From Thermoplasmata archaeon (GTDB lineage Archaea; Thermoplasmatota; Thermoplasmata; Lutacidiplasmatales; SKW197): DNA of 64,000 bases. The notes below the pieces were generated by a model. It saw nothing but the letters and a program-made list of their open reading frames with translations. It made no database searches and had not been told where the DNA came from. The translations under genes were made by a program, and so were the position numbers. Location of the stretch: NCBI GenBank assembly GCA_038874435.1, contig JAVZCK010000006.1:37332-101331 (forward strand). Direction: 5' to 3'. Below, piece by piece: positions 7,089 to 21,820 of this stretch. Positions within the stretch are counted from its first letter, which is position 1. Every line of letters begins with the position of its first letter.

Positions 7089-7922
7089 TTATTTCTTCTT
7101 TTTCTCTTTCTTTGGTTTTGATGTTTGGGTTATATGATTAGGACAGTTTGTGTTCAACGGGACTTCAAGAACTTCGAACACGTTCCTATACCCATCGTAG
7201 TAAATCAAGTTGTAAGGCAATGCATCATACTCTTTTGAGATTATCTTTATCCCACAGAGGACCTGAAGAGCAGAAATTACCGCGGTAGTTGTGATTTCTG
7301 CAGGCAATTTCGGAGAATAAATCGTCACATCCTCTCTGCCTGAACATGAGAAGATTTGCTCAAGGTTCTTGAAATGGGTTTTGTTCATCCCGCATTCGAT
7401 ACAAGCAGTTTTTGGAGGGAGTACCACCTGGACTTTGCCTGATGTACCTAGGGTACCTCCATCTACAAGTGGAATCCCATAATAATAAGCATGAGAATTA
7501 ATGTATAGCCGTGCCATGATATTGTCTAAGCATCCAAATATAATATCAAACTCCTTGAGAAAATTCTCAGGCAGTTCCTGAATTGGCTTAGAATACCAAG
7601 AAACACGAACTGTTTTATCCAGTTTCTTCAATTCTCTTGCAAGCACTTCTGCCTTCAGCAGCCCTTTCTCAGCATCCTCAATTCTAAAGAGGGCACATCT
7701 GCTTAAATTGGATTTCACAATTTTGTCCATGTCTACTATCGCAATATTCTTGAAACCGGAAAGTACTAGATTTTTTCCTACCTCATTGCCAAGGGCACCC
7801 GCACCAACAACAAGTACCTTACTCTTCTGAATTAAGTTGAATTTTATCCACGGAATCCTCTTCTCTCTATCAAACATGTCTTCGTCGTGCATTCCGACCT
7901 TCAACACTTTATCTGCCGTCAT
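7089..7922 (-). CDS. E1-like ubiquitin/Ubl-activating enzyme (ThiF/MoeB/HesA family adenylyltransferase)
   Basis: Rossmann nucleotide-binding 'KVLVVGAGALGNEVGKNLVLSGF', 'IVDMDKIVKSNLSRC' (E1 Arg-finger/NLxRQ-like), catalytic Asp region 'FGCLDN', and a Zn-binding Cys cluster 'CIECGMNK...SCSG...NCPNH'. The start ATG lies 1 nt after the JAMM gene's TAA stop. Lys-rich C-terminal tail. Confidence 0.8.
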   Translation of the reverse strand: MTADKVLKVGMHDEDMFDREKRIPWIKFNLIQKSKVLVVGAGALGNEVGKNLVLSGFKNIAIVDMDKIVKSNLSRCALFRIEDAEKGLLKAEVLARELKKLDKTVRVSWYSKPIQELPENFLKEFDIIFGCLDNIMARLYINSHAYYYGIPLVDGGTLGTSGKVQVVLPPKTACIECGMNKTHFKNLEQIFSCSGREDVTIYSPKLPAEITTTAVISALQVLCGIKIISKEYDALPYNLIYYDGYRNVFEVLEVPLNTNCPNHITQTSKPKKEKKKK

Positions 7923-7923
7923 C

Positions 7924-10563
7924 TTAACCTCCCTGTGCTTTTTTGAATCCCTTCTTCTCGAGTTTCCTCAAAATTTCTTCTGCCTCTTCTTTTTCTTTAA
8001 GAATTTCTTCTTTTTGCTTTTTCAACTTCTCCATCACCTTTTCTGCATTGGATTTTACCTCAAGGAATTTCTTTACTGCAGGAGCAAGTTCTTTTTCAAC
8101 TCTCTCCACAACTTCCTTCACAATTTCAGTTTTCAGCGCTTCCTGGGGTACCTTCTTCCCAAGCAACTCGGTTATCACAGTTTCAAGCTCAGCCCTCATC
8201 CTTTTAAGCGTCTCTCTCTCATTCTCCAAGTTATTCTTTTCCTCCAGTAATGCCTGGGTCTTCAATTCAATTTCGTGGAGCATGTCTTCAACATTCTTCT
8301 TCTCTTTCTCCACTTCCTCCTTCTTTGTATTAACCATTGCTTCAAGTTCATCCATCTGTTTCTTCCTAGCTGCAAATTCTTTTCCCATTTCATCAATAAC
8401 AGCAAGGTCTTTAGCTATCTCAGCCTCCTTCTTTTTCACTATCTCCTCCCTTTCACTTATCTCCTTTTCTCTCCTCTCAACTTCCATGACTTTTCTTTCT
8501 ACATACTCCTCTTTCTCAGCCAGGACTCTTTCTCTTTCTGTCAGAGTTGCTTCATATCTTGTGATCTTGTCAACACGCTGATTGTATTCCTTTCTCGCCT
8601 CCTCAATCTGCACGCGCTCTAATGTCATAGCTTTCTCTTGCTCAGAAATCACTGCTTCTCTCTCCCTCAGCTCCTTCTCTTTCTCCGCCAATCTCAGATT
8701 TATCGCTTTCAGTTTTTCTTCCTCTCCACGAATAAATTCTTCTTTTTCGTAGAGCACTTTTTCCTTGTCCTCTATTGCTACTTTCCTAGCTTCAAGTTCC
8801 TGCTTGACACGAATAACATCGTTCTCTTCCTTCTTCAATCTTTCTCGGGTCTCACTCAATTCAATTGCTTTCGCATTAGTTTGCTCAATTGCTTTGGAGA
8901 GAGCAATTTTTGTTTGATCTAGCTCCTCACTCTTTGCAGATGTTTCAGCTAACATCTGATTAAGTTGACGTTCTTTCTCCTCTAGTTGTGCAGCAAGAAC
9001 CCTAGCACGGTCCTCTTCTGCCTTCAACCATTCTTCTTTTTCTCGAATTATTTTCTCCTTCTCAGCAAGCATCGTTGCCATCATCGCTTGCTCCGTCGCC
9101 TTTGTATCAACTTCTCTTTTCTCTCTTTCCAGTTCTTCCATCAGCTTAATAAATTTTTCAACCTTCTCCTTCTCTCCAGTTTCTTCTTTGAGCGACTGGA
9201 TCGCATCGAGAATCCATTTTTCTTTTAAATTCAGTTCTTTTTCTTTTATTCTTATTTCCTCCCTTATCTGTCTCAACTCCTTTAAATCCGTTTCTATTTT
9301 TTTCTGCATTTCTGCGGGCATGGTAGCAATGTTCTGGGGGTATTCTTGAGCTTCTTTCAACCTTTCCTCCCACTGCCTCAATTCTTCAAACTTTGCGTTC
9401 AAAGCATTTCGTTCCATCTCCAGCTGATACATTTGAACTGTAAGATTTTCCTCACGCTTTCTGAAATCCTGCGACATTGCTTCAAATGCCTGAATTTTTG
9501 CATTTAGTTCAATCCCAATTTGTTTGATTCTCTCTTCCTCTGTTTTTAACCAGTTTTCCCACTCTGTAAGCTCTGCAATCTTCTTGTTGATATCGGAGTA
9601 ATTCTCTTGAAGTTTGTTCTCTCGCATTTTAAGGTCTTCTTCCCATACATAAAGGTCGCTTTCCTTTGTTTTCAGTGCTTCCTCTTTCTCAGCAAGTTCG
9701 TTTTTCAAATTCTCCAGTTCTCTATACTTCTCACTCAACGTAGCCAAAGAGTCTTCTATGCTGGGCATCTCAAATTCATATTTGCAATTCGGACAGATTT
9801 CTTCTGTAAAGCCAACCTCCGCTTTGCACCTAGGACAAATTTTTGTCTCGTCATCAGTATGTTCTTTTTTCTTAAGCATTTTTTTCTTTTTAACTGGGTA
9901 CTGTATTTTTCCCATCTCTGTCTTCCATTTTCCACAATCATAGGGTTTCTGTAATTCCTCCCAGAATATTGCATAAGGGCGGAGGTAATAATCCATGTCC
10001 TTAACACCAAACACAGCGAACTCCTCATTTATTGGGTCCACAACTATTGCAGAGTGATATTCATGTGGAAACATCTTGGTCTGGGTTGAGATGTCTGTGC
10101 TAGAGAGAAAACATGTATGACCTGGATGTGAATGGTACCAACCAACAAGGATGTAATCAAAAGGAATCTCATCTAGTTGCTCAAACAATTTCTCATATCC
10201 TTCCTTATCGAATTTCACATGAACAGCACTAGCATCCAGATCTGATGTCACAATGTCTCTCACTACTGCATAAACTTTACCATCGTATTTATACACATCC
10301 CCCAAAAGAAAACCCATTACTTCCAGAGTCTGTGATTTGTACTTCATCGCATGGAGAAGAATCTTTTCTTCAGCATTCTTAGAAATATATACATCAAAAA
10401 TTTTTGAGGATTCAATTGTTTTCTTGAACAGCTCAAATCCTTCTTTTGAAGCCCATTCATGGGGTGCTAAATACTCATACTGTGGTGGTTCTTTATTCGA
10501 AATTTCTTTTTTGCTTTCGCCCACAATCTTAGGCTTTTCCCTCGCCATCTTCTGCTCCTCCAA
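7924..10563 (-). CDS. JAMM/MPN+ metalloisopeptidase (Rpn11/AMSH-like deubiquitinase-type) fused to a Zn ribbon and a ~600-aa coiled-coil region
   Basis: The N-terminal ~200 aa carry the conserved Glu ('LEVMGFLLGD') and the complete JAMM motif 'HSHPGHTCFLSSTD' (H-x-H-x7-S-x2-D). A Zn ribbon 'CPRCKAEVGFTEEICPNCKYEF' follows. The remainder is E/K/L-rich heptad-like sequence (ELENLKNELAEKEEALK...), i.e. a long coiled coil. The protein ends '...KKAQGG'. It overlaps the E2 gene 3' end by 35 nt. Confidence 0.85.
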   Translation of the reverse strand: MEEQKMAREKPKIVGESKKEISNKEPPQYEYLAPHEWASKEGFELFKKTIESSKIFDVYISKNAEEKILLHAMKYKSQTLEVMGFLLGDVYKYDGKVYAVVRDIVTSDLDASAVHVKFDKEGYEKLFEQLDEIPFDYILVGWYHSHPGHTCFLSSTDISTQTKMFPHEYHSAIVVDPINEEFAVFGVKDMDYYLRPYAIFWEELQKPYDCGKWKTEMGKIQYPVKKKKMLKKKEHTDDETKICPRCKAEVGFTEEICPNCKYEFEMPSIEDSLATLSEKYRELENLKNELAEKEEALKTKESDLYVWEEDLKMRENKLQENYSDINKKIAELTEWENWLKTEEERIKQIGIELNAKIQAFEAMSQDFRKREENLTVQMYQLEMERNALNAKFEELRQWEERLKEAQEYPQNIATMPAEMQKKIETDLKELRQIREEIRIKEKELNLKEKWILDAIQSLKEETGEKEKVEKFIKLMEELEREKREVDTKATEQAMMATMLAEKEKIIREKEEWLKAEEDRARVLAAQLEEKERQLNQMLAETSAKSEELDQTKIALSKAIEQTNAKAIELSETRERLKKEENDVIRVKQELEARKVAIEDKEKVLYEKEEFIRGEEEKLKAINLRLAEKEKELREREAVISEQEKAMTLERVQIEEARKEYNQRVDKITRYEATLTERERVLAEKEEYVERKVMEVERREKEISEREEIVKKKEAEIAKDLAVIDEMGKEFAARKKQMDELEAMVNTKKEEVEKEKKNVEDMLHEIELKTQALLEEKNNLENERETLKRMRAELETVITELLGKKVPQEALKTEIVKEVVERVEKELAPAVKKFLEVKSNAEKVMEKLKKQKEEILKEKEEAEEILRKLEKKGFKKAQGG

Positions 10564-11071
10564 CTATCTTTGGAGCATGTTCTGTCTTTGTCTTCTCTAC
10601 AATTACTGGAGGTTTGTACGGATGCTTTTCAAAATACTCTGCGGCCTTCTGGCATGCCTCACTACCAAGAGGATTGCCTGGGTTAGGATTTGAAAGAAGT
10701 GTCTCAAGTCCCTTTATGAACATTAAGAGCGTAGACTGTGGGGTCCATGTGTCGAACAGCTTGGTACAGACATAGCCTCCTTCATGTGGGGGCATTATAT
10801 TCGGATGAAATATCGGACTGAGCCATCTTACAATCGGCTTCTGATATGGATACTGAGCCGTAATAATAATTTTCACTTTGTGGGTATATCTAGTAGTCAC
10901 TTTACCTTCCCAGAGAAATGGTCCAGGCGTTTTCACAAATGTGAGGTCTATTTCTATCGGAAAGTTGGATAAGCTACTGTCTGAAACAGAGAGTATGTGC
11001 CTTAGCTCTTTCTTGCACGTAAGGATTTCATTATACAATCTTTGCCTCAATACTTCGATAGGAAGCGGCAC
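10529..11071 (-). CDS. ubiquitin-conjugating enzyme E2 (UBC fold), GTG start
   Basis: 'YPYQKPIVRWLSPIFHPNIMPPHEGGYVCTKLFDTWTPQSTLLMFIKGLETLLSNPNPGNPLGSEACQKAAEYF' matches the UBC core nearly residue-for-pattern: Y-P...P, the HPN motif, the catalytic Cys about 10 residues later, W-(S/T)-P, LL..PNP..PL...A. The start codon is GTG (11069-11071), preceded by a GAGGGGGA Shine-Dalgarno. Confidence 0.85.
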   Translation of the reverse strand: MPLPIEVLRQRLYNEILTCKKELRHILSVSDSSLSNFPIEIDLTFVKTPGPFLWEGKVTTRYTHKVKIIITAQYPYQKPIVRWLSPIFHPNIMPPHEGGYVCTKLFDTWTPQSTLLMFIKGLETLLSNPNPGNPLGSEACQKAAEYFEKHPYKPPVIVEKTKTEHAPKIVGGAEDGEGKA

Positions 11072-11086
11072 ATCTGATTCCCCCTC

Positions 11087-12154
11087 TCAACATCCGCCTT
11101 CTGGGTCAGGTATAAGCTCCATTAAGTCCCCGTCTCTTATATCTGCTTCCTCCACCTTGGTCTCACCACGAAGTATGCGCTTTCCCTTGCGGAGCACATA
11201 CACACCAATGTTCTTTTCCCAGTAGGTTCCCACACTTTCTATGATCTCGTCTATTGTGTTGTCCGGCTCAAGTTCCATGTCCAGCGAAGCACCTGTCTCA
11301 GCATCACGCACTTTCACTCTTATCGACATTTCTTCCACCACCTTTTTCTTTTTTACAGTTTCTTCTTTTTCTGCCTCACTTGAAAGTAATCGGAATTTTT
11401 GCATGATGAGTTCAAAACTCTCTTTTTTTGTCTCTTCAGATTCCACAAGTTCTTCCTCCTCTTCCTCCTCACCTTTGGGTTCACTTATTCCGGCTTTTTT
11501 ATAATCTATAACCTCCAGGTATTGTTTCAATGTCTCAATTTCCTTCTTGCTCAGGACAATCGGTGAAACATGGACAATGAACACACCATTGTTCACTGAA
11601 ACCATGTCAACTACACCTTTCACAAAATCAATCACCTTTTCAAAACCGTTGGCTGTTATGAGAAGTCCGATTGCATCCAGAATGATTGCTGGTTTTGAAT
11701 TGTTTTTAACAAATTCACCGATGATGTAAGTCATCTCAAACTCCAATCGCTGCGGGTCCAAGGTCTTTTCCTTGGTCAATGTTGATGTAAGCCAGTATAT
11801 TTCCTCAATGTTTACATTGTACCTCTTTCTAATCTTTCTAGGATTGCTTTTTGTGAGACATAATCCTGCAAATCCAGCATCTAGTAAGTCCTTGAACAAC
11901 CTATAGGCAAGATTTTCATCCTCTGCGATGTAACTTCCACCCGTCTCCAAAAAGCTTGTGGGTTTCGAGGAAGCAAATCTAGCACCACAGTGAGGACAGA
12001 CTTCATCTAGTTCTCCAACCTCTCCGTTGCATTTGGGGCAGAGAAACACCTCTTCAAATAGTTCCTTTCCGCAAGAGGGACAAATAGTAGAGTCCTTTGG
12101 AATATTTTTACCGCAATAAGGACACTTCGTGGTTTCTGAAGTTTCGGGTGTCAT
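11087..12154 (-). CDS. double zinc-ribbon + DUF835-like domain protein with C-terminal ubiquitin-like beta-grasp domain ending Gly-Gly-Cys
   Basis: N-terminus 'CPYCG..x10..CPSCG..x10..CPKCN..x10..CPHCG' (four CxxC pairs). The middle domain resembles the C-terminal domain of the 20651-21820 protein. The last 80 aa 'MSIRVKVRDAETGASLDMELEPDNTIDEIIESVG...RILRGETKVEEADIRDGDLMELIPDPEGGC' parallel ubiquitin (MQIFVKT...VEPSDTIENVKAKI...LRLRGG) and terminate in GG followed by a single Cys. Confidence 0.75.
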   Translation of the reverse strand: MTPETSETTKCPYCGKNIPKDSTICPSCGKELFEEVFLCPKCNGEVGELDEVCPHCGARFASSKPTSFLETGGSYIAEDENLAYRLFKDLLDAGFAGLCLTKSNPRKIRKRYNVNIEEIYWLTSTLTKEKTLDPQRLEFEMTYIIGEFVKNNSKPAIILDAIGLLITANGFEKVIDFVKGVVDMVSVNNGVFIVHVSPIVLSKKEIETLKQYLEVIDYKKAGISEPKGEEEEEEELVESEETKKESFELIMQKFRLLSSEAEKEETVKKKKVVEEMSIRVKVRDAETGASLDMELEPDNTIDEIIESVGTYWEKNIGVYVLRKGKRILRGETKVEEADIRDGDLMELIPDPEGGC

Positions 12155-12188
12155 TTAGAGGCACACCTTCTAACCAATATAACAAAAC

Positions 12189-12200
12189 TCAAATATATAA
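12189..12200 (-). promoter_or_regulatory. TATA-box-like element (minus strand ttatatattt) about 35-45 nt upstream of the ubiquitin-operon first gene
   Basis: The plus strand reads 'aaatatataa' in the 70-nt gap between the PHP gene stop (12225) and the Ubl-gene ATG (12154). Confidence 0.3.
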
Positions 12201-12224
12201 CTAACGCTGAGTGTGGGCATACAC

Positions 12225-13511
12225 TCAAATAAAGCTGTCAAGAGTTGGCTGAGAATTTCTCCCTTTTTTCACTTCCACTCTTTTCGTTGTTCTGACTTCC
12301 TCTAGATTTTCCTGAGTACTGACCTCCACATCTGGAATTACGATTTCTCCATATTGCCCACCACCACCGGGTTTAACAATAACCTTCCCTGCTCTGAACG
12401 CCTCAATTGCCCTAACAACCTCCAGCGGTGCTACTCTGTTTATCTCCTCCATTTCTGCATCAATCAATATTCTCACTTCATTACCAAACTTGCTGATTAA
12501 TCCTTCCCAGATTTCTATAACCTTTTTGCTGTTTGGAGAACTCCCCAATGCCTTGGCAATTATTTCCGTAAGTGGGATTATGTGAATATATTTCGGTCTA
12601 TGTGAAGGCGACCTAGGTTCTGGATAAGTCGCAAGTTCCTCAACTCTATCTCGAACACCCTTCTTTATTCTTCCTCCACATCTGCACTTCCATCCTTTTC
12701 TCTTTGCCTCATTTAGCGTGTAATGGGTATAGCATTTTATGCAGGCACTTTCATTGTATTTTCCTTCCTCTGGTGGTACTCCAACATTCAGCACAACGCA
12801 CCTGCCTTTCTTGCGAAGAAGGGCCATACCCACCTCCTCAAAAGTCGGTTCTTCTACCTCCATACGCATGAATTCTCTGGCTAGGCGAAGGGGCCAAGGA
12901 GAATGGGCATCGGAATTTGTGAGGAATGTCATGTTTTGAAGTTCTGCAATTCTGTCAGCGTAAGAGGTGTCTGCACTTAACCCTAGCTCAATGTAGCCAA
13001 CATAGTCCACGAGGTCTCCGTAACACTCTTTCAGCGAATCAAATGCAGCATACACCGAAGTCCATGGCGTAAAAGCATGGCAGGGACCAATGAGCACATT
13101 GCATGTTTTTGCGATTTCTGCAATCTCAGCACCGTTGCCATGAAATCTTGGCCTCCCATCGGTCATAAGGTCTGAGACCTTTGAGATTATCTTTTCCGAG
13201 AATTCCTCTACCTTTGAAATTGAAGGGAAGATTAGCAGGTGATGAACCCTGTCACTGTCCTCTACCTCACAAGTTAAAATTACTCTCAAATTCCCAATCT
13301 CAAAAGTGCCTTCATCCACTTTTTTTAGTGCCTTTATTTCTTCAAGCCACCTAGGGTGGAGACAATCCCCTGAGCCAATCAAATTTATTCCTTTCTGGCT
13401 TGCCCCCTTCGCCAGATTCCGCATATTCATCACATCACTTGTACCTCCGGAATAGCGGCTGTGAATGTGTAAGTCAGCATTAATTTCCATTTTTAACAAC
13501 CTCTTTTCCAA
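12225..13511 (-). CDS. PHP-domain protein with C-terminal Cys4 zinc finger (Endonuclease Q / TIGR00375-like)
   Basis: PHP signature 'ADLHIHSRYSGG', with further His/Asp ligands (TNSDAHSP). C-terminal 'CIKCYTHYTLNEAKRKGWKCRCGG' Zn finger, then 'PGGGGQYGEIV'. The architecture matches archaeal EndoQ-type PHP proteins. Confidence 0.55.
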   Translation of the reverse strand: MEKRLLKMEINADLHIHSRYSGGTSDVMNMRNLAKGASQKGINLIGSGDCLHPRWLEEIKALKKVDEGTFEIGNLRVILTCEVEDSDRVHHLLIFPSISKVEEFSEKIISKVSDLMTDGRPRFHGNGAEIAEIAKTCNVLIGPCHAFTPWTSVYAAFDSLKECYGDLVDYVGYIELGLSADTSYADRIAELQNMTFLTNSDAHSPWPLRLAREFMRMEVEEPTFEEVGMALLRKKGRCVVLNVGVPPEEGKYNESACIKCYTHYTLNEAKRKGWKCRCGGRIKKGVRDRVEELATYPEPRSPSHRPKYIHIIPLTEIIAKALGSSPNSKKVIEIWEGLISKFGNEVRILIDAEMEEINRVAPLEVVRAIEAFRAGKVIVKPGGGGQYGEIVIPDVEVSTQENLEEVRTTKRVEVKKGRNSQPTLDSFI

Positions 13512-13845
13512 AAATTACATTGATTCCATGGATTTCCACCACATAAACGAAGAGAAGGCACCCAATTCCAAGAAACGCAATGGGCAACGAAAGCGTAGGT
13601 ATAAGGTAAAGAAAGGCAGTGGCCAGGAGCGAATCCGCAAACGCTAAAATTCCCCACACAAGCAACGCTTCTTTCCTTTGCCTTACCACTCGTGCAAACA
13701 CACCTGTAATCCCAAGTGGCTCAGATTTCCTTCTAGGGTCTGTACTTGCAAACGCTGAGAAAAAAGGGCTAACAAAAAACGCAAAAAATAAAATTAGAAG
13801 CAACAAAAAGAAGTATATGTCCATCCCTATGTTGGTAATGCTCAT
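13480..13845 (-). CDS. small membrane protein (3 TM), unknown function
   Basis: Hydrophobic 121-aa ORF lying between the P-type ATPase and PHP genes on the same strand. It overlaps both neighbours by a few to 32 nt. No motif. Confidence 0.35.
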   Translation of the reverse strand: MSITNIGMDIYFFLLLLILFFAFFVSPFFSAFASTDPRRKSEPLGITGVFARVVRQRKEALLVWGILAFADSLLATAFLYLIPTLSLPIAFLGIGCLLFVYVVEIHGINVIFGKEVVKNGN

Positions 13846-16556
13846 ACTTCCTCCTTGAGAGTTCGCATTAAATACTTCCGAGTTTCATCCACACAGATTA
13901 GAATGATTCCAAGCAAAAAGATAGTCAGCCAGTCAATTGTTCTGATAGGAATCGTTCGAAATGTTGAATTCATGAATGGTGCGTAGACCGCAAAAACCTG
14001 AAGTAGTATTGCAAGGACTATTGTTATCAACAACAGACGATTGTTCATTTTCAAACTGAACAGGGACTCTCGCAGATTCCTGCAGTTGAGTGCACTGTAC
14101 ATCTGGAATATGACAAATGCACTGAAGGTCATTGTCTGGGCATAGGCCTCTCTGGTAATTTGGCTGCCCATGTAGTCTGCAGGTGCAAAATTGTAGGAAT
14201 ACCAGAATACGAAAAGCGTTAAAAACGCCATTGCAAGCCCGTTCACGAGAATTGCGGATACCATCTCTTTTGAAAGAATGTGTTCTTTCGGGTTTCTGGG
14301 CTTGTGCTTCATAATCTTCTTTGTCGCAGGTTCCAGTCCTAGAGCTTGAGCAGGTGGACCATCAATCAGTATGTTAACCCATAGAATCTGGACTGGGTAA
14401 AGCGGAATCACACCAGGAACTGTGAAAATTGCAAGGAAAACGAGTGTCGTTGCCCCGATGTTCGTAGTTATCTGGTACCTAACAAACTTTCTAATATTTT
14501 CATAAACCTTTCTTCCTTCCTCAACTGCTTTCACAATTGTTGCAAAGTTGTCGTCGGCCAGCACAATTCCACTTGCATCTTTCGCTACATCTGTGCCAGT
14601 AATTCCCATAGAAATCCCTATGTCTGCATTTGCAAGGGCAGGTGCATCGTTCACGCCATCGCCAGTCATTGCCACTACATGACCTCGTTTCTTGAATGCA
14701 CGAACAATCTTCAACTTCATTTCTGGTTGCACACGGGCATAGACACTGACTTCTTCCACGATTTTAGCAAGTTCATCGTCGCTCATTTTCTCAAGTTCAC
14801 TGCCTGTAAGAATTTTTCCACTCCAGATTCCCAACTGTTTTGCAATTGCTATTGCAGTGTCTTTCTGGTCTCCTGTTATCATTACCACTTTAATTCCTGC
14901 TTCATGACATGTCTTGATTGCTTCCTTCACTTCTGGCCTCGGAGGGTCTATTATTCCTACAAGCCCTACGAATGTCATGTTGCTCTCCAGTTCTTCCACA
15001 TCATCTGGGATTTGCCCTACTTCCTTATAACCTAGAGCCAGAACCCTATAACCCATTGAGGCCATCCGTTTGTTTGCCTTTTCTATAGCTGCACGGAGTT
15101 CGGCAGAAAGTGGCAAAACTTTCCCATTATGCCAGATGTTTGTAGAAAGTGAAAGAATAACCTCTGGTGCACCCTTGATGTGAACCACTTTTTTACCATC
15201 TACTTCATTTATTGTACTCATTATCTTTTTCTTAGGGTCAAAAACCTTTTCATAAATCCGTTTGTATTTTGTATAGTATTGTTTCGGTACAAGCCCTATC
15301 TTACCAGCAAGTGCAAGAAGTGCCCCTTCTGTTGGGTCTCCTATTACCGTCCAAACATTTTTTTCTTCCATCAGGTTTGCATTGTTGCAGAGCACACCAA
15401 TTCTTGCCAACAACTGAAGGGTCTCCTTGTGCTCATTGTATCTCTCAACTTCTCCTTTTGGTTCATACCCTGTGCCACTTACCACCAGAAGCTCGCCATC
15501 CACAAAAACTTCCTTCACAGTCATCTGATTTTTTGTAAGGGTGCCTGTTTTGTCAGTACAAATTACTGATGTACAACCAAGGGTCTCTACACACATCAAG
15601 CGGCGCACAATTGCATTCCTCTTTGCCATCACCTGCATACCTATTGCCAGGGTAACGACAAGCACAATTGGAAGACCTTCTGGAATTATTGCTACAGCTA
15701 AGCTTATCGCAAGCAAAAAGTTCTGAGAAAGATGTGTTTGAGAGATTGCTGTTGCTGTGAAAAAGAGGAGTGCGGAAATTGCAATCGCAATGTAACCAAT
15801 CTGCTTGCCCAGTGTATCAATGCTCTTCTGTAGTGGGGTTTCTTCTCCTTCACTCTCCTGCACCAGCTTTGCAATTTTTCCAAGTTCTGTTGCCATTCCT
15901 GTATTAACCACTACTCCCTTTGCCCTGCCTCTCGCTAGGATTGTTCCCATATATACCAAATTCCTTCTATCCCATTTTTCAGCATCTTCAGAGCATGGCT
16001 GAGCATCCTTCTGGACTGTAACGCTTTCTCCAGTGAGCATTGACTCGTCAACTTCTACATTTGTGGTTTCTATGAGACGAAGGTCTGCAGGCACTTTGTC
16101 TCCTTCTTCCAGCACAACAATGTCCCCTACCACCACATTCTCCACAAGAATCTCCTGGCATCTACCATCTCTTATTACTTTGGTCTTAGGAGCAGTCATT
16201 CTTTTAAGGGCTTCCATGGCCTTCTCTGCTCTTGCTTCCATCATGTAGCCCATTACTGCATTTATCGTGATTGCAATAATAATAGCTGCAGTATCAGAAA
16301 GATGGTTTTCTTCTGTAAAAATTGTCAAAAGAACGGTAATGACTGCAGCAACTATGAGCATGATAATAGGTATGCTCTTAAACTGATTCAAAAATTTAAT
16401 AACTGGATGTTCCTTTTTTTTCTCAGCAAGCAGATTTTTGCCTTTTGACAATCGCCTGTTTGCTTCCTGAGATGTGAGGCCCTGATCCAGAGAAGTTTTT
16501 AACTCCTTCATTATCTCAATCGTGGTCATTGCATGCCATGAGCGTCGCGTTCCCAT
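13842..16556 (-). CDS. P-type cation-transporting ATPase, type IIA (SERCA/PMCA-like Ca2+ ATPase)
   Basis: 'ICTDKTGTLT' phosphorylation motif, 'MTGDGVNDAPAL' hinge, 'IPEGLP' in M4, 'TGES' actuator motif, 10 TM pattern. 904 aa. The probable true start is the 'MTTIEIMKEL' Met, 9 codons in. Confidence 0.9.
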   Translation of the reverse strand: MGTRRSWHAMTTIEIMKELKTSLDQGLTSQEANRRLSKGKNLLAEKKKEHPVIKFLNQFKSIPIIMLIVAAVITVLLTIFTEENHLSDTAAIIIAITINAVMGYMMEARAEKAMEALKRMTAPKTKVIRDGRCQEILVENVVVGDIVVLEEGDKVPADLRLIETTNVEVDESMLTGESVTVQKDAQPCSEDAEKWDRRNLVYMGTILARGRAKGVVVNTGMATELGKIAKLVQESEGEETPLQKSIDTLGKQIGYIAIAISALLFFTATAISQTHLSQNFLLAISLAVAIIPEGLPIVLVVTLAIGMQVMAKRNAIVRRLMCVETLGCTSVICTDKTGTLTKNQMTVKEVFVDGELLVVSGTGYEPKGEVERYNEHKETLQLLARIGVLCNNANLMEEKNVWTVIGDPTEGALLALAGKIGLVPKQYYTKYKRIYEKVFDPKKKIMSTINEVDGKKVVHIKGAPEVILSLSTNIWHNGKVLPLSAELRAAIEKANKRMASMGYRVLALGYKEVGQIPDDVEELESNMTFVGLVGIIDPPRPEVKEAIKTCHEAGIKVVMITGDQKDTAIAIAKQLGIWSGKILTGSELEKMSDDELAKIVEEVSVYARVQPEMKLKIVRAFKKRGHVVAMTGDGVNDAPALANADIGISMGITGTDVAKDASGIVLADDNFATIVKAVEEGRKVYENIRKFVRYQITTNIGATTLVFLAIFTVPGVIPLYPVQILWVNILIDGPPAQALGLEPATKKIMKHKPRNPKEHILSKEMVSAILVNGLAMAFLTLFVFWYSYNFAPADYMGSQITREAYAQTMTFSAFVIFQMYSALNCRNLRESLFSLKMNNRLLLITIVLAILLQVFAVYAPFMNSTFRTIPIRTIDWLTIFLLGIILICVDETRKYLMRTLKEEV

Positions 16557-16647
16557 GGTTGGGCAATATTTTTGGTGTATTTATTCCTTATCGGATACCT
16601 CGCTCATCCATCCTTTCCCGAAATGAAAGCAAAACTTTATATTTGAT

Positions 16648-17067
16648 TTGCGATTTCATGGTAACATGAAGTTCGTCAGAATTTCACAGGCGGAACTGGT
16701 GAAAATCAAGGAACTCTACGAAGGCGTGATGTCTCATGCCTGTCATGGACTTTTCTTCAGAGAAGGGGCAATATTTGGCGCAGAAATTGCAAATGAAGCC
16801 ATGAAGGACAAGGGAAACTACTTCAAAATAGTGGAGATGCTAATAAAGAACAGGGGCTGGGTGGATGAGATTTCCTTTAAGGAACACGAAGTAATAGTGA
16901 AGGGCTCAATTGAAGTCACACCATCTGAGATCCCAACATGTCATCGACTCAGAGGACTGATAAGACAGGTTTATGAGGTGTACTACAACACCAAAGTCCA
17001 TTGTGTGGAAGTTGAATGTGAAAGCACAGGGAAAGACAAATGTGTATTTAAGATAGAGGCAATATAG
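16648..17067 (+). CDS. V4R-domain-like small protein
   Basis: 'CHGLFFREGAIFGAEIANEAM' (C..F...GAI.GA) and C-terminal 'ECESTGKDKCVFKIEAI' (C...G...C.F.I) resemble the V4R (4-vinyl reductase) small-molecule-binding fold. Adjacent to a Roadblock protein, as in known archaeal clusters. Confidence 0.45.
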   Translation: MRFHGNMKFVRISQAELVKIKELYEGVMSHACHGLFFREGAIFGAEIANEAMKDKGNYFKIVEMLIKNRGWVDEISFKEHEVIVKGSIEVTPSEIPTCHRLRGLIRQVYEVYYNTKVHCVEVECESTGKDKCVFKIEAI

Positions 17068-17074
17068 GGGAGGA

Positions 17075-17434
17075 ATGAAAATGCCGGTGAATATGAATGA
17101 AGTGGTAAAAACTCTGAAAATAAGCACTGGAGCAATTGCAGTAGCGGTGGTGAGCAGAGATGGGCTTGTTATTGCTGCAGAGATGCCACCAGGAGTTTAT
17201 ACAGAGACATTTGCAATTATGTGCGCTACAATCCTAGGAGCAAGCATAACTGCCACGTCTGAGCTTAAACGTGCTACACCTGAAAGGATAGTGATAGAAA
17301 GTTCAGATACCAGAACTATAATTCTAGGTGCAGGGAAGAAAGCACTCTTAATCTGTGTTGTGGATTCCACAAAAGACCTGAATATGGTGCTTTCAGAAAT
17401 GCAGAAGGCAGCAGATGCAATAAAAGCACCTTAA
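17075..17434 (+). CDS. Roadblock/LC7 (MglB-like) domain protein
   Basis: 'TGAIAVAVVSRDGLVIAAEMP' is the classic Roadblock beta-strand motif, followed by a helix and 'RIVIESSDTRTIILGAGKKALLICVV'. RBS 'ggaggaATG'. Confidence 0.8.
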   Translation: MKMPVNMNEVVKTLKISTGAIAVAVVSRDGLVIAAEMPPGVYTETFAIMCATILGASITATSELKRATPERIVIESSDTRTIILGAGKKALLICVVDSTKDLNMVLSEMQKAADAIKAP

Positions 17435-17448
17435 ACTTTCTTCTTATC

Positions 17449-18879
17449 ATGCGTCCCTTAATTGAATTCCGTGTTCTTGACATCAACTCAGAATGTTTGG
17501 GAGTGAGTAGAGAGAAATTAATGGCTAATGCTGGTAGAGCTGTTGCAGATGTAATTCTGCAGCGATTTTATGCAAAAAAAATTCTTGTGGTTTGTGGTAC
17601 TGGAAACAATGGTGGCGATGGGTTTGCAATGGCTACAATACTCGGAAAGACCAACGATGTCACGGTCTGTCTCATGGAACGCCCTGAAAAGATAAAGTCA
17701 GAAATCGCGAAAAAACAGTTTAGGAATTGTAGAAAAACCTGCGATGTAGTCAGTTGGGAGAAAATTGATAGTTTGCTAGGGAAGACAGAGCTCATTGTAG
17801 ATGCAATCTTTGGTACTGGCTTAACTAGGATGCCTGAAGGAAAGTATGCAGAAGTTATCGAGAAAATCAATGCATCTGGAAAAAAGATTGTTTCTGTAGA
17901 TGTACCCAGTGGATTCCCACACATGTTGGCTGTGAAACCAACACTTACTGTCACTTTTCACGATGTGAAAGAGGGAATGACCGAAAAAAATTCTGGCGAG
18001 ATTGTTGTGATGCCTATTGGAATTCCTCCTGAAGCAGAAACTGAAACAAACTTTGGAGAGTTCATGCTCTATAAGGTGCCAGATAAAAATTCCCATAAAG
18101 GGGATAACGGTAGAGTGCTGGTCATCGGGGGAGGCCCTTACACCGGTGCTCCATACTTTGTGGCAATGGCTGCGTACAGAACTGGCGTTGACCTCGTCCA
18201 TATAGCAACCCAGGAGGAGGCATATCCAGTGCTCAGAAATTACTCGCCCTTCTTGATCGTGCATAGGATGCCAGAAGAGGCAGACAAAAGGATTGAGTTC
18301 CTGATAGACCTCCACAAAAAATTTGATGTCATTGTTGTAGGACCTGGACTCGGCAAGGAAAAGGAAATGCTTGGGACATGTAAGGAATTTATTTCCGCAT
18401 CTGAGAAACCAATGGTTGTGGATGCAGATGCAATTTCTATTCTCAGAGAAACAAAACCAAAATCTGAGATTCTAGTTACTCCCCATGCTGGCGAATTCTC
18501 AGAGTTAAGTGGCAGAAAAGTGCCAGAAGAGCTGGATTCTCGAAAAGAGATTGTGCAGAAAGCAGCAAAAGAACTTGGTTGCACGATTCTCTTGAAAGGA
18601 GCTGTGGATGTGATTTCAGATGGAGTACATGTGAAGATCAACAGAACAGGAAATCCCGGAATGACTGTAGGCGGCACTGGTGATGTTTTAGCTGGAATTT
18701 GTGCTGGTCTTATTGCAAAAGGTTGCACACCATACCAAGCTGCAAGGTTAGGTGCGTTCATCTCTGGGCTTGCTGGCGATGCTGCATTTGAAAAATATGG
18801 TTACTCACTTCTTCCCACTGATATGATTGAGCAACTGCCGGAAGTCATAAAAAAAGGTTTAAATAGAATAATAGAATAA
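17449..18879 (+). CDS. nnr: bifunctional NAD(P)H-hydrate epimerase / ADP-dependent (S)-NAD(P)H-hydrate dehydratase (YjeF_N + YjeF_C)
   Basis: YjeF_N 'ILVVCGTGNNGGDG'. C-terminal carbohydrate-kinase-like 'GRVLVIGGGPYTGAPYFVAMAAYRTGVDLV' and 'GGTGDVLAG'. Confidence 0.85.
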   Translation: MRPLIEFRVLDINSECLGVSREKLMANAGRAVADVILQRFYAKKILVVCGTGNNGGDGFAMATILGKTNDVTVCLMERPEKIKSEIAKKQFRNCRKTCDVVSWEKIDSLLGKTELIVDAIFGTGLTRMPEGKYAEVIEKINASGKKIVSVDVPSGFPHMLAVKPTLTVTFHDVKEGMTEKNSGEIVVMPIGIPPEAETETNFGEFMLYKVPDKNSHKGDNGRVLVIGGGPYTGAPYFVAMAAYRTGVDLVHIATQEEAYPVLRNYSPFLIVHRMPEEADKRIEFLIDLHKKFDVIVVGPGLGKEKEMLGTCKEFISASEKPMVVDADAISILRETKPKSEILVTPHAGEFSELSGRKVPEELDSRKEIVQKAAKELGCTILLKGAVDVISDGVHVKINRTGNPGMTVGGTGDVLAGICAGLIAKGCTPYQAARLGAFISGLAGDAAFEKYGYSLLPTDMIEQLPEVIKKGLNRIIE

Positions 18880-18896
18880 TAATTTTTGGTGGTGAG

Positions 18897-20573
18897 ATGG
18901 GCCTAAGGACAAGAATGGCACTCGCACTCGCCCTTCTGTTTGGACTTGTATTTGCAATAGGGATGGGTTTCATTGCAGTTCTAGAATACTTCGGATTTAT
19001 ACAAGGTATCTGGCTCCTGATTATTCCCTTGACATTCGCAATTTTTATGGTGTTTCTGCAGTGGGCTATCTCTCCTTTCATTCTTTCCTGGATTTACAAA
19101 ATTGAGTGGACATCTCTGGAGGCACTTCCTCCTGCAATCGGAACCTACATCACAGATGTGTGCACACGCAAAAGAATTAATGTCCCCAAGATAGGCATAA
19201 TAGACGACCTGAATCCAAATGCATTTACTTTCGGTTGGACAAAGAACCATGCTAGAATTGCAATTACAAGAGGTGTTTTGGAATACTGCGACATTGAAGA
19301 AACCAAAGCAGTTCTAGCCCATGAAATGGGCCACATTGTTCACGATGATTTTGTGGTGATGACAATTGTCTCTGCAATTCCACTGATTTTCTATATAATC
19401 GCAAGAGCTTCAATCCAAGCATTGAGGTATGTGCCAAAGGGTAAAAAAAGTGGAGGCCAGGCAGCCATTGTGTTTCTCATTACTGCAGCATTTTCCTATC
19501 TGATATACATTCTTTCGCAGTTTATTGCTCTCCTGATAAGCAGGTACAGAGAGTACTACGCAGATGAGTTCGCTGCTGAAAGCACCAGGAAACCAAATGC
19601 TCTTGCCTCAGCCCTTCTGAAGATTGCCTATGGGATGGCGACCCAGGGACTGGGTGAAGCATCAGAAAAAGGCCATCGAAAACATGTTTCCACACTTGGC
19701 ATCTTCAATGCTGACAGTGCAAGGGCACTCGCTGCAATGAGTGCAGATGCCTACGGGAATTACTCAACAGAAACAATCCAGAAGGCAATGGCATGGGACC
19801 TCTGGAATCCCTGGGCATGGTGGCTCGAACTCCATTCCACACATCCACTGCCAGCAAAACGACTTAAAAAACTTGGAGAGATGGCTGAAAAAATGGGTCA
19901 GAAACCTCTTGTGAGTTTTAAACTCAAGAAGCCAGAGTGTTACTGGGATGATTTCCTGAAGGACATTTTTGCAAAGTATGGTGGAGTGATTCTAGGAATT
20001 GTTTGTGGAGTGCTGTTGATGTGGTATGGCTGGAGCCATGGCTTCACCACTCAGAAACTTGCCTGGACTTTTCTGTTTGGATGTGCCTTTTTCATGTTTA
20101 TGGTGGGTCTATGGGGAGTCGGGTACCTTCTTGGCTATGCCTATCCGTTCAGATTCAAGGAGAGTGAAGTGGTGTCATTGCTTGAAAATCCGAAGGCATC
20201 ACCGATAAAGGGGATTCCAGTAAGATTGCAAGGAAGGATTATTGGGCGTGGAATACCTGGTTTGTTCTATTCCGAGGACATGAAACTTGACGATGACACA
20301 GGGTTGCTGTTGATTGACTATCATCAGATTTCAAAACTGATAGATTTCTTCGTAGGAATCTTTGGCACAGAACGACATGTGGGCAAGACGGTGGTGGTTG
20401 AGGGCTGGTATCGGCGGAGTATAATCCCTTATCTTGAGCTTTACAAAATGTATTTTGCAGATGGTGGAGACACTAGAAAGGTTTATACCTCCTACTTCTA
20501 TATAGGGGGTGCAGCGGCGGTGATGGGACTGGGACTGCTGTTCTCAGTCCTGTTGCTACCACTGGTGCTGTAA
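18897..20573 (+). CDS. M48-family (HtpX-like) membrane zinc metalloprotease with long C-terminal extension
   Basis: TM helices flanking 'LAHEMGHIVHDD' (HExxH) and a downstream 'EYYADEFAAE' Glu ligand region. About 250-aa C-terminal membrane/soluble extension. Confidence 0.75.
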   Translation: MGLRTRMALALALLFGLVFAIGMGFIAVLEYFGFIQGIWLLIIPLTFAIFMVFLQWAISPFILSWIYKIEWTSLEALPPAIGTYITDVCTRKRINVPKIGIIDDLNPNAFTFGWTKNHARIAITRGVLEYCDIEETKAVLAHEMGHIVHDDFVVMTIVSAIPLIFYIIARASIQALRYVPKGKKSGGQAAIVFLITAAFSYLIYILSQFIALLISRYREYYADEFAAESTRKPNALASALLKIAYGMATQGLGEASEKGHRKHVSTLGIFNADSARALAAMSADAYGNYSTETIQKAMAWDLWNPWAWWLELHSTHPLPAKRLKKLGEMAEKMGQKPLVSFKLKKPECYWDDFLKDIFAKYGGVILGIVCGVLLMWYGWSHGFTTQKLAWTFLFGCAFFMFMVGLWGVGYLLGYAYPFRFKESEVVSLLENPKASPIKGIPVRLQGRIIGRGIPGLFYSEDMKLDDDTGLLLIDYHQISKLIDFFVGIFGTERHVGKTVVVEGWYRRSIIPYLELYKMYFADGGDTRKVYTSYFYIGGAAAVMGLGLLFSVLLLPLVL

Positions 20574-20650
20574 TGGTGGAGAAAGGAAAATAACAAATAC
20601 CGAAATGCTATACAGAAAGTGCTGAAGAGTAGAGGTAGGTCTAAAAGGAT

Positions 20651-21820
20651 GTGGAAAAGTTGATGCTGACATGGTATGCGATACCCCCAGTAATTGCCAT
20701 ATCAATATTTGCAGCCCTGCTTGTGTGCTTTGCTAGATTAAGGACTAGCATTCACTATTCCGCATTTCTTTATGCATTTTTGTTCTTTCTGTGGAGTTTA
20801 GGAGAACTTATTGAAAGGTCAGCGGGTCCGCCTCCCAACGACATGGAAATTGCACTTCTTGGATTGAAAATTATTGCGATTGCAGGTGCATTTTTACCTG
20901 CTACCCTTGTGCATTTTGCATCTGAGTTCCCAGTTCATCAGGACAATGTTCCCAGGGCCGGGATCGGCCTGCTTTATGTGGTGAGTGCTATTACTGCTTT
21001 CCTCTCAGCAGGCACGAATTTTCTTGTTGAAGGTTTGATTGTTTATGAGCCGGGTTGGGGTGCTGACTTCGGAGTGGGAATGTATGTATGGGGAACTTAT
21101 ACCATTTTAGGGACTATAATTGCGATATGGCTGCTAGAAAAAAGTTCTTTTAAATTACAGTCAAGTGCCGGGAGAAGCCAAGCAAGAATTATAGGAATTG
21201 CCCTTGCGATTTCACTCTGTTGTGCTACACTTACTGGCTATGTACCTCCACTTCTTGGTACCGAAGACATATATCCTCTTACTACAATCCCGTTTGCAAT
21301 TACTGGCGTACTGATGCTCCACACATTTCTGAAATATCATCAACTTATTCGGTTCTCTGTAAAACTTCCCAGGTCTAAAAAATTGGAAACAGGTTACTTT
21401 TGGTGCACTGACGGGGATTATGCTAGGAAATATTTTTTTGGGATTGCTCAGGCACTGGGAAGTGCACTTTTCGTTACCACGGACCCAAACATTCCCGAGG
21501 AAATCCACAAATCGGCAAGGGTAATTCTGCTGGCAAAGGATGGGGATTTGAACCCGTTGGACGAGGACAAAATGCGGATGTTCACTTTTCTCATTGAAAA
21601 ATTTGTTTCGCAGGAAGAAAGGGCAGTTGTACTTCTCGAAGGATTTGATGATTTGCTGGCACATTATTTCTACTCCACAATTTCTGTACCTGATATGCTT
21701 GAGGAAATCAGGAAATGTGCGGCAAGATACAATGCTAAGATAATCTGTGTAATAAACCCAGATATTCTTGAGGACTGGCAAATAGAGGAGATAAAGAAAG
21801 GAGGGAAGCCATTAAAGTAG
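20651..21820 (+). CDS. polytopic membrane protein (about 7 TM) with cytoplasmic DUF835-like C-terminal domain
   Basis: The N-terminal 230 aa are hydrophobic helices. The C-terminal domain 'AVVLLEGFDDLLAHYFYSTISVPDMLEEIRKCAARYNAKIICVINPDILEDWQIEEIKK' is similar in pattern to the middle domain of the Ubl-carrier protein at 11087-12154. GTG start at 20651; the alternative ATG is at 20663. Confidence 0.55.
   Translation: MEKLMLTWYAIPPVIAISIFAALLVCFARLRTSIHYSAFLYAFLFFLWSLGELIERSAGPPPNDMEIALLGLKIIAIAGAFLPATLVHFASEFPVHQDNVPRAGIGLLYVVSAITAFLSAGTNFLVEGLIVYEPGWGADFGVGMYVWGTYTILGTIIAIWLLEKSSFKLQSSAGRSQARIIGIALAISLCCATLTGYVPPLLGTEDIYPLTTIPFAITGVLMLHTFLKYHQLIRFSVKLPRSKKLETGYFWCTDGDYARKYFFGIAQALGSALFVTTDPNIPEEIHKSARVILLAKDGDLNPLDEDKMRMFTFLIEKFVSQEERAVVLLEGFDDLLAHYFYSTISVPDMLEEIRKCAARYNAKIICVINPDILEDWQIEEIKKGGKPLK

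Follow-up and report, generated by a model that had tools for sequence, protein, structure and literature searches.

Two genes lying 8.5 kb apart in a chromosomal stretch of an uncultured Thermoplasmata archaeon (hereafter the window: 64,000 nucleotides of contig JAVZCK010000006.1) raise the question of whether a DUF835-like domain found in both connects a membrane protein to a ubiquitin-like (Ubl) conjugation system. The nearest proteins and loci to those of the window come from Thermoplasmata metagenome-assembled genomes (MAGs), at 97–98% identity. An earlier note had recognized the shared domain in gene A, where it is fused to a Ubl tag, and at the C-terminus of a seven-transmembrane (7TM) protein, gene B, and had suggested that the DUF835 class might be a target or adaptor of the Ubl system, for example a regulated receptor such as B. 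The analysis reported here favors a picture, to which we assign a probability of roughly 0.6, in which A is the conjugated modifier of an operon comprising A, an E2, a JAMM protease and an E1, and B is a separate sensor. The features of gene A, in window coordinates, are the following:

11087..12154, minus strand: gene A, a predicted 355-aa pro-modifier with two zinc ribbons, a DUF835/iKaiC domain, a disordered linker and a Ubl domain ending GG-Cys (open reading frame [ORF], Pfam, ortholog alignment and AlphaFold model)
11981..12136, minus strand: double zinc ribbon, residues 7–58, CxxC-x10-CxxC twice (Pfam Zn_ribbon_3/DZR, E 1e-10 to 3e-7; 8/8 cysteines invariant in orthologs)
11510..11953, minus strand: DUF835/iKaiC domain, residues 68–215, a RecA/KaiC-like fold lacking the Walker A loop after strand 1
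11330..11509, minus strand: acidic, lysine-rich linker, residues 216–275, predicted to be disordered and of varying length among orthologs
11093..11329, minus strand: ubiquitin-like beta-grasp domain, residues 276–354, ending LIPDPEGG, the most conserved part of A
11090..11092, minus strand: C-terminal tail, Cys355 after GG, probably a propeptide, variable among orthologs

The C-terminal domain of A gives a weak YukD-type ubiquitin-like match in Pfam (residues 278–347). Its AlphaFold model, built, like the other structure models, on an alignment of 5–6 sequences, is a beta-grasp fold with strand and helix order b-b-a-b-b-b and pLDDT 82–87. Foldseek returned the ubiquitin of Caldiarchaeum subterraneum (6fnn_C) as the best match (E 1.1e-6), with C. 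subterraneum ubiquitin, SUMO, NEDD8 and Hub1 all matching at E ~1e-6 and target-normalized TM-scores of 0.77–0.86. The PDPEGG motif is invariant in all A-type proteins and is followed by 1–9 variable residues (C, I, M, IREGE, LGWQNLYLL), and most stand-alone relatives of the Ubl terminate exactly at GG. By predicted fold and C-terminal di-glycine, the Ubl domain of A is therefore a putative conjugatable modifier, and the fusion of one DUF835 copy to a Ubl domain, beside E2, JAMM and E1 genes, is as the earlier note had described it.

Residues 78–211 of A match DUF835 (PF05763) with E 2e-26 and 92.9 bits, above the Pfam gathering cut-off of 33.1, and the linker that follows is gapped and poorly conserved in the ortholog alignment, with pLDDT below 50 at residues 219–275. 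A RING domain hidden in the zinc ribbons was considered and ruled out, the cysteine spacing being sequential and not cross-brace. In public databases A is annotated as a "DUF835 domain-containing protein"; no NCBIfam model matches A, the E2 or B, and a sequence search of solved structures with an A profile yielded zinc-finger noise and sub-threshold ubiquitin and FlaH matches only.

Gene A is followed by three genes in the order E2, JAMM, E1, all on the minus strand and separated by gaps of 15 nt or by overlaps:

10529..11071, minus strand: E2, a ubiquitin-conjugating enzyme of UBC fold with an HPN motif and catalytic Cys102 (PF00179, E 1.2e-13, 51.3 bits against a cut-off of 27)
7924..10563, minus strand: JAMM/MPN+ metalloprotease, 879 aa, with the JAMM domain at residues 57–171, a zinc ribbon at ~234–256 and a coiled coil of ~600 residues (PF01398, E 6e-14)
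7089..7922, minus strand: E1, a 277-aa ThiF/MoeB-type adenylyltransferase (PF00899, E 3e-51)

The residues expected of active enzymes are conserved in all three. The HPN motif of the E2 (H89-P-N91) is present in 83/83 homologs and C102 in 82/83, while the zinc-site motif of the JAMM protein (E...HxHx7Sx2D: E81, H144, H146, S154 and D157) is kept in 77–78 of 78 homologs. Conserved positions in the E1 comprise G40xG42xxG45, R75, D133 and a zinc site formed by C174, C177, C260 and H263, together with C193, invariant in 58/58. The coiled coil of the JAMM protein gives matches of SMC, ASRP and Rad50 type. No RING protein is encoded in the operon or its flanks.

To place this operon among its relatives, an E2 profile was searched against one genome per species of the Genome Taxonomy Database (GTDB), using a narrower E2 alignment, a first and broader one having proved too divergent. 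The scan yielded 126 relatives, of which the best 80 loci (L numbers below) were examined; almost all of them belong to Thermoplasmatota, Methanomassiliicoccaceae included. A metagenome scan added five more loci with A-type genes. All loci come from MAGs or metagenomes, and the comparison covers the flanks of loci rather than complete genomes. ORFs were taken to start at the first start codon after a stop. Two arrangements emerge:

Canonical operon (~70 of 80 loci): gene order E1, Ubl, E2, JAMM, with no E3
Canonical Ubl: stand-alone, 62–100 aa, mostly ending exactly at PDPEGG
Canonical JAMM: mostly 160–250 aa, a few with C-terminal membrane helices (255–346 aa)
Variant operon (the window, L001, L006, L007, L015, L016 and L034): gene order Zn-ribbon-iKaiC-Ubl, E2, long JAMM, E1
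Variant Ubl: fused, 355–400 aa, with a tail after GG
Variant JAMM: 629–884 aa, with a coiled coil

A stand-alone Ubl ending in PDPEGG beside the same E2, JAMM and E1 points to the Ubl of A being a bona fide modifier with an acquired N-terminal extension. The iKaiC-Ubl fusion is conserved at 42–97% identity in 12 loci (seven from species genomes, five from metagenomes). Fusion, coiled-coil JAMM and relocation of the E1 to the 3' end co-occur strictly, in 7/7 of the species-genome loci and in the 3/3 metagenome loci with enough sequence, which hold all four genes (L088, L089 and L091); the long JAMM is seen only alongside the DUF835-Ubl fusion. Each scanned genome contributes a single E2 locus, which suggests that in its clade the variant has taken the place of the canonical operon. 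The variant is a derived, lineage-specific remodeling of a Thermoplasmatota-wide E1-Ubl-E2-JAMM operon.

The same recurrence disposes of the trivial explanation that A is really two genes, one for DUF835 and one for a stand-alone Ubl, joined erroneously by a frameshift or in assembly. The only, unspecific point in favor of such an artefact is that the Ubl stands alone in most relatives, whereas the uninterrupted fused ORF recurs in the 12 independent MAG and metagenome contigs, from different samples and with linkers differing in both length and sequence. We regard an artefact as refuted and give it practically no weight. A few apparently long stand-alone Ubl ORFs in other loci (e.g., L041 and L021) are over-extended at the start, where they overlap the E1 gene; being products of the start rule, they are not fusions.

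Smaller features of the operon genes were noted in passing. The E2 has a C-terminal tail beyond the UBC fold (window 10529–10600) with a short basic/hydrophobic motif, [KR]-[IV]-R-[IV]-[IV]-G, in E2 genes of L008–L064; the tail reads APKIVGG in the window and RRIRIVG in many canonical loci, and is missing in L001, L016 and L034. Where conserved, it may be a docking motif. The JAMM protein ends in KKGFKKAQGG (window 7924–7935) here and in L007, L015, L088 and L089, with GG at or near the end; in relatives at 42–58% identity the corresponding end is VWKKAAK. The lack of conservation of KKAQGG at that distance means that the JAMM protein probably has no conjugatable end, and this candidate was dropped. 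In a few canonical loci a C-terminal hydrophobic segment (..VILAVGGVMTVLWALWAAAG) suggests membrane-anchored JAMM variants (L014 10590–11531, L065, L066 and L084 2116–2883). Directly upstream of A, on the same strand (window 12225–13511), lies a gene for a PHP-domain protein of the TIGR00375 family (352 bits, above cut-off), a family that we take to resemble archaeal endonuclease Q; the gap of 70 nt to A makes co-transcription possible.

The Ubl family occurs in settings beyond these operons. Searched against 1.84 billion representative proteins, the Ubl-domain profile found 148 relatives (P numbers below), most of them stand-alone proteins of 62–100 aa. Six are Ubl-E2 fusions in which GG abuts the E2 directly (P0006, P0059, P0095, P0098, P0127 and P0156). 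Three have an N-terminal Ubl followed by an FHA domain (P0026, P0033 and P0043), one combines Ubl, vWA and a zinc ribbon (P0091), and some very long proteins carry up to 13 tandem Ubl repeats without GG (P0013, P0020 and P0036). Another, P0032 (L005 10001–15055), has its Ubl in the interior, without GG, in a protein that also carries a zinc finger, TPR repeats, a coiled coil and a DUF835 domain.

Such non-conjugatable settings, in particular the internal Ubl of P0032 and the N-terminal ones of the Ubl-FHA and Ubl-vWA proteins, lend themselves to another explanation of A. Its Ubl might not be conjugated at all but serve for docking, as the UBL does in Rad23 or parkin, and so hold iKaiC to the E2, the JAMM protein or a proteasome/Cdc48-type machine, with the free modifier encoded elsewhere; the large N-terminal load of A, unusual for a modifier, fits this as well. 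Against it, the A-type Ubl is always C-terminal, its invariant PDPEGG followed by a short variable tail is the signature of a processed modifier, A fills the operon slot of the stand-alone Ubl, and the scan turned up no further Ubl or E2 locus in these genomes. On balance we consider a docking role unlikely.

The genomic context of the operon also bears on what it might be for. Canonical operons lie among genes for ribosomal proteins L18e and L13, LysRS, Trp/TyrRS and a SIS-domain protein, in one copy per genome across ~70 species; with no specific PADLOC or virus match, this looks like a core cellular function and not like a defense island. Bacterial Bil (BilABCD) systems nevertheless provide a precedent for a different role: BilA is attached to phage tail proteins, and A might be attached in the same way to the proteins of infecting virions. 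The window operon shares with Bil operons the same four components in the same order, Ubl-E2-JAB-E1 (PMC11601603), with no E3; Ubl-E2 fusions are known on both sides (here P0006, P0059 and others), and some Bil and Bub Ubls bear N-terminal accessory domains (coiled coil, DUF1508, N/G-rich tails; Gong et al., 2024, PMC11601603), although an iKaiC accessory domain has not been reported for them. The E1 and JAB proteins, moreover, weakly match CBASS-type PADLOC models. Neither Ubl nor E2 is matched by a PADLOC model, which is weak evidence against Bil membership because PADLOC-DB v2.0.0 (2023) may lack Bil-specific models. The E2 is a eukaryote-type UQ_con enzyme with an HPN motif, whereas a CEHH motif is reported for the E2s of Bil systems (PMC11354881), and the operon in the window is not flanked by defense genes. 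A search of virus contigs for the E2 gave one weak match at 30% identity, in a giant-virus MAG (L086 5001–5330; IMG/VR GVMAG-M-3300013132-23); this segment is presumably a eukaryote-type E2 outside the present system. Taken together with the housekeeping context, these observations make antiviral defense a quite improbable function.

We now turn to the domain that A shares with gene B, which lies on the opposite strand behind a peptidase gene:

20651..21820, plus strand: gene B, a 389-aa membrane protein with a HisKA_7TM sensor region (residues 16–230; nt 20696–21340) and a C-terminal DUF835/iKaiC domain (residues ~244–383; nt 21380–21799)
18897..20573, plus strand: M48 (HtpX-like) peptidase, ~556 aa, the conserved upstream neighbor of B, outside the Ubl operon (PF01435, E 4e-31)

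Both ORFs exist as the earlier note had described them, and the peptides on which it based the similarity are present at residues 155–212 of A and 325–383 of B. Compared directly, the two domains are only marginally similar: BLASTP aligns them over 167 columns spanning the entire domain at 24% identity and E 0.021, and hhalign of two thin family alignments, the profile comparison that the note had proposed as a check, gives E 0.073. Given this borderline value, iterated searches with decoys and a comparison of folds were used in its place. Among 6,684 ORFs drawn from 86 loci, a hidden Markov model (HMM) of the A domain places P0032 (E 7e-8) right after its own family, with the B family next, and the B-domain HMM likewise places P0032 and then the A family after its own. 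Started from either domain, jackhmmer (inclusion threshold E 1e-3) converges on the A family, the B family and P0032, with B orthologs joining at E 3.7e-8; no reversed-sequence decoys were recruited, and the sole other match was a sub-threshold ORF in the A-seeded run (L059 5766–6902, E 2e-3). In Pfam, B residues 280–382 match DUF835 with E 2.5e-7 and 31.0 bits against the cut-off of 33.1, and the model is matched by 5/5 B orthologs at E up to 0.01.

The predicted structures agree. The AlphaFold models of the A DUF835 domain (pLDDT 80–90) and of the B C-terminal domain (pLDDT 84, pTM 0.82) show the same b-a-b-a-b-a-b-a-a-b-a order, and the best structural neighbor of B is the archaellum protein FlaH. 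The Walker A loop after the first strand is absent from both sequences; its absence from a RecA/KaiC-like fold agrees with the "iKaiC" description of DUF835, an assignment reportedly made by Makarova, Galperin and Koonin in 2017. In the literature iKaiC denotes an inactivated KaiC-like ATPase domain that serves as an output module in archaeal signaling (Galperin et al., 2018, PMC5847659). The A and B domains are thus confirmed as distant paralogs within DUF835/iKaiC, their homology secured by Pfam, iterated search and matching predicted folds, and the note's recognition of a shared domain holds by these routes even though the direct profile comparison stays borderline. Two nearby genes sharing DUF835 is ordinary paralogy.

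Gene B has a context of its own. Residues 16–230 match HisKA_7TM (PF16927; E 4e-11, 43.6 bits against a cut-off of 28.6), as do 4/5 orthologs. The M48-B pair is kept in L003 (8203–11179) and L007, and L004 (1–1627) holds an M48 fragment with B. The B orthologs in L003 and L004, at 53% identity, have no Ubl operon within 10 kb. In L003 the M48 peptidase is directly upstream of the B ortholog, and the pair adjoins an archaellum operon (flagellins, ArlC/D/E-like, ArlH-like, ArlI and ArlJ), with a gene for a KaiC/GvpD-type ATPase 1.4 kb downstream of the pair. From its domain content and neighborhood, B most plausibly acts as a membrane sensor in its own right, taking its input through HisKA_7TM, giving its output through iKaiC and paired with an HtpX-like M48 protease. 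Known DUF835 proteins (REC-DUF835, REC-PAS-DUF835) likewise carry the domain C-terminal to a sensor module.

Is B then a regulated receptor of the Ubl system? The M48-B pair lies 6.7–9.7 kb from A in the window and at the edge of L007, the 97% relative, and the proximity is confined to these two. Neither B nor the M48 gene is found within ~9–10 kb of A in L001, L015, L016, L088, L089 and L091 (A identity 42–88%), and B orthologs keep M48 with no Ubl operon nearby. The closeness of A and B in the window is probably incidental and not conserved, and the proposal that B is a regulated receptor is not upheld. An association between iKaiC domains could still bring the two proteins together: A would dock on the cytoplasmic iKaiC of B or of other DUF835 proteins, so that the receptor is tagged or recruits the Ubl machinery. 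RecA/KaiC superfamily relatives such as KaiC, FlaH and Rad51 form homo- and hetero-oligomers, which counts in favor of such docking, as do the common fold of the two domains, the 8.5 kb spacing in the window and its closest relative, and P0032, which also joins the same Ubl family to DUF835. Set against this, the neighborhood is already gone at 85–88% A identity (L015, L088, L089) as well as at 42–45% (L001, L016, L091), the A and B domains are among the most distant DUF835 pairs, joined only via an intermediate, and the relatives of P0032 described below have no Ubl. Docking of this kind is a doubtful prospect.

The broader suggestion, which gives the DUF835 class as a whole a role as target or adaptor in the Ubl system, can be judged in the same manner, and it divides. 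In the clade of the window the fusion is conserved (12 loci), so that DUF835 belongs to the Ubl system there. Class-wide the suggestion is poorly supported, as no significant DUF835 gene lies within ~10 kb of the ~70 canonical operons, the L059 ORF met above being the one weak match. Neither does P0032 restore it. Its family (relatives P0160–P0163) consists of proteins of 1,400–1,700 aa with a FYVE-like zinc finger, TPR repeats, a long coiled coil, a helical region and DUF835, but the Ubl of the A-type family occurs in P0032 only and is absent from 4/4 relatives, which indicates a single, one-off insertion; the P0032 locus has no E1, E2 or JAB neighbors. P0032 was therefore rejected as a recurrent association of Ubl with DUF835. 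The family may still matter for the origin of the variant: the iKaiC domain of A is most similar to that of these giant proteins (E 1e-11 to 1e-16), and their zinc finger and long coiled coil are modules of the kind added in the variant operon, which hints at a common source. The P0032 family may have been the donor of those modules.

If A is the conjugated modifier, the operon would work as follows. The parts list is as observed above, and the steps are those that we infer from homologous systems. The JAMM protease would trim the residue or residues after the conserved GG of A, as the Rpn11 homolog of C. subterraneum does when it cleaves pro-ubiquitin (PMC5654768). The ThiF-type E1 would adenylate the exposed glycine, form a thioester and hand the modifier over to Cys102 of the E2, which would attach the whole 354-residue A by its C-terminus to lysines of targets or of the E2 itself, there being no E3 encoded in the operon. 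JAMM enzymes cut after GG, and no likely cleavage site is seen ahead of the Ubl, so that the zinc-ribbon and iKaiC portion would stay attached and the entire 354-residue protein would be the tag. On its flexible 60-residue linker, this portion would either direct the modifier to its targets by docking on assemblies of KaiC-family or other iKaiC proteins, a role suggested by the rings and hetero-oligomers that relatives of the fold form, or be covalently recruited cargo. The JAMM protease would also reverse conjugation, with its long coiled coil scaffolding the assembly.

A more specific version of this scheme, which we hold only tentatively and judge to have a small chance of being right, is that the modifier carries its own substrate receptor. 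The iKaiC domain, with the zinc ribbon, would dock on KaiC-family rings or other iKaiC proteins, possibly 7TM-iKaiC sensors such as B; reversible conjugation independent of an E3 would then wire the archaeal KaiC signaling hub, with the JAMM protein as scaffold and eraser.

Several points weigh against A as a conjugated modifier and B as a separate sensor. Conjugation of a 354-residue modifier to putative targets is argued only from homology and the GG terminus, and any choice between a targeting and a cargo role for the iKaiC domain and the zinc ribbons is speculative. The E1 is minimal and ThiF-like, with its candidate catalytic cysteine, C193, assigned by conservation alone. The direct sequence similarity of A and B is marginal, B falling 2 bits under the Pfam gathering cut-off. 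Finally, the absence of B near A concerns locus flanks, and an interaction in trans would be compatible with it.

In fold and enzyme types, the closest known counterpart is the Caldiarchaeum ubiquitin operon, which encodes ubiquitin, E1-like and E2-like enzymes, a small RING E3 and an Rpn11/JAMM protease (PMC3082918, PMC5654768, PMC6043591). Common to both are a eukaryote-type ubiquitin fold, a UBC-type E2, an MPN+/JAMM protease, a ThiF-type E1 and an extension after GG. The window operon differs in lacking a RING E3, in its shorter E1 (277 aa), in its Thermoplasmata host, in the ~275 extra N-terminal residues of its modifier and in the ~600-residue coiled coil of its JAMM protein. With sampylation (SAMP/UbaA/HvJAMM1) the system shares an archaeal beta-grasp protein ending in GG, a ThiF-type E1 and a JAMM protease, and the window JAMM and E1 weakly match a 'desampylase' model and a SAMP E1 model, respectively. 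Unlike sampylation, which needs no E2, it always includes a UBC-type E2 with a conserved catalytic cysteine, and its Ubl is nearer to ubiquitin than to the ThiS/MoaD type. Conjugation of a large protein also has a parallel in type II CBASS, where Cap2 and Cap3 conjugate a whole enzyme, the CD-NTase, via its C-terminal glycine by E1/E2-type chemistry and reverse the reaction with a JAB protease. The protein conjugated there has no beta-grasp domain and the E1 and E2 are fused, in contrast to the true Ubl and separate enzymes seen here.

To our knowledge, work on E2-containing archaeal Ubl systems has centered on Caldiarchaeum and Asgard lineages, and we know of no tested function for DUF835/iKaiC, frequent as it is as an archaeal signaling domain. 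The literature searched contains no account of a DUF835-Ubl fusion or a Thermoplasmatota E2 operon, and fusion to a C-terminal Ubl is absent from the DUF835 architectures given in PMC5847659. A compact E1-Ubl-E2-JAMM operon without an E3 is widespread in Thermoplasmatota, among housekeeping genes, and in one clade its modifier has turned into a multidomain protein of 355–400 residues with an iKaiC domain, accompanied by a remodeled deubiquitinase. If A is conjugated whole, it would be an archaeal cargo-bearing or self-targeting Ubl modifier, physically joining two regulatory systems so far treated apart. Should the self-targeting version hold, it would amount to a new ubiquitin-type signaling logic in which the tag is the targeting adaptor, and would provide a first functional handle on DUF835. 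The four proteins are small enough for reconstitution in vitro, which makes the conjugation idea directly testable.

Some further observations concern other loci and other parts of the window. Archaeal-type Ubl-E2 operons are present on contigs binned as bacterial, namely L066 (Weeksellaceae), L077 (Faecalibacterium) and L082 (Eggerthellaceae), with the E1 also in L077 and L082 and the JAMM in L066. L066 is apparently the same as the archaeal contig L065, judging from identical ORF lengths, domain scores and protein C-termini, and for all three loci mis-binned Methanomassiliicoccales/Thermoplasmata contigs are more likely than gene transfer. The window also encodes two big TPR proteins (31804–34110 and 2665–5238), neither with DUF835; one (768 aa) has a helix-hairpin-helix and several zinc ribbons ahead of the TPRs, and in the other (857 aa) TPRs accompany an AAA_16 NTPase of STAND-like type. 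At window 16648–17434, between the Ubl operon and B, adjacent genes encode a V4R-domain protein (139 aa) and a Roadblock/LC7 protein (119 aa), in what looks like a small MglB-like regulatory pair.

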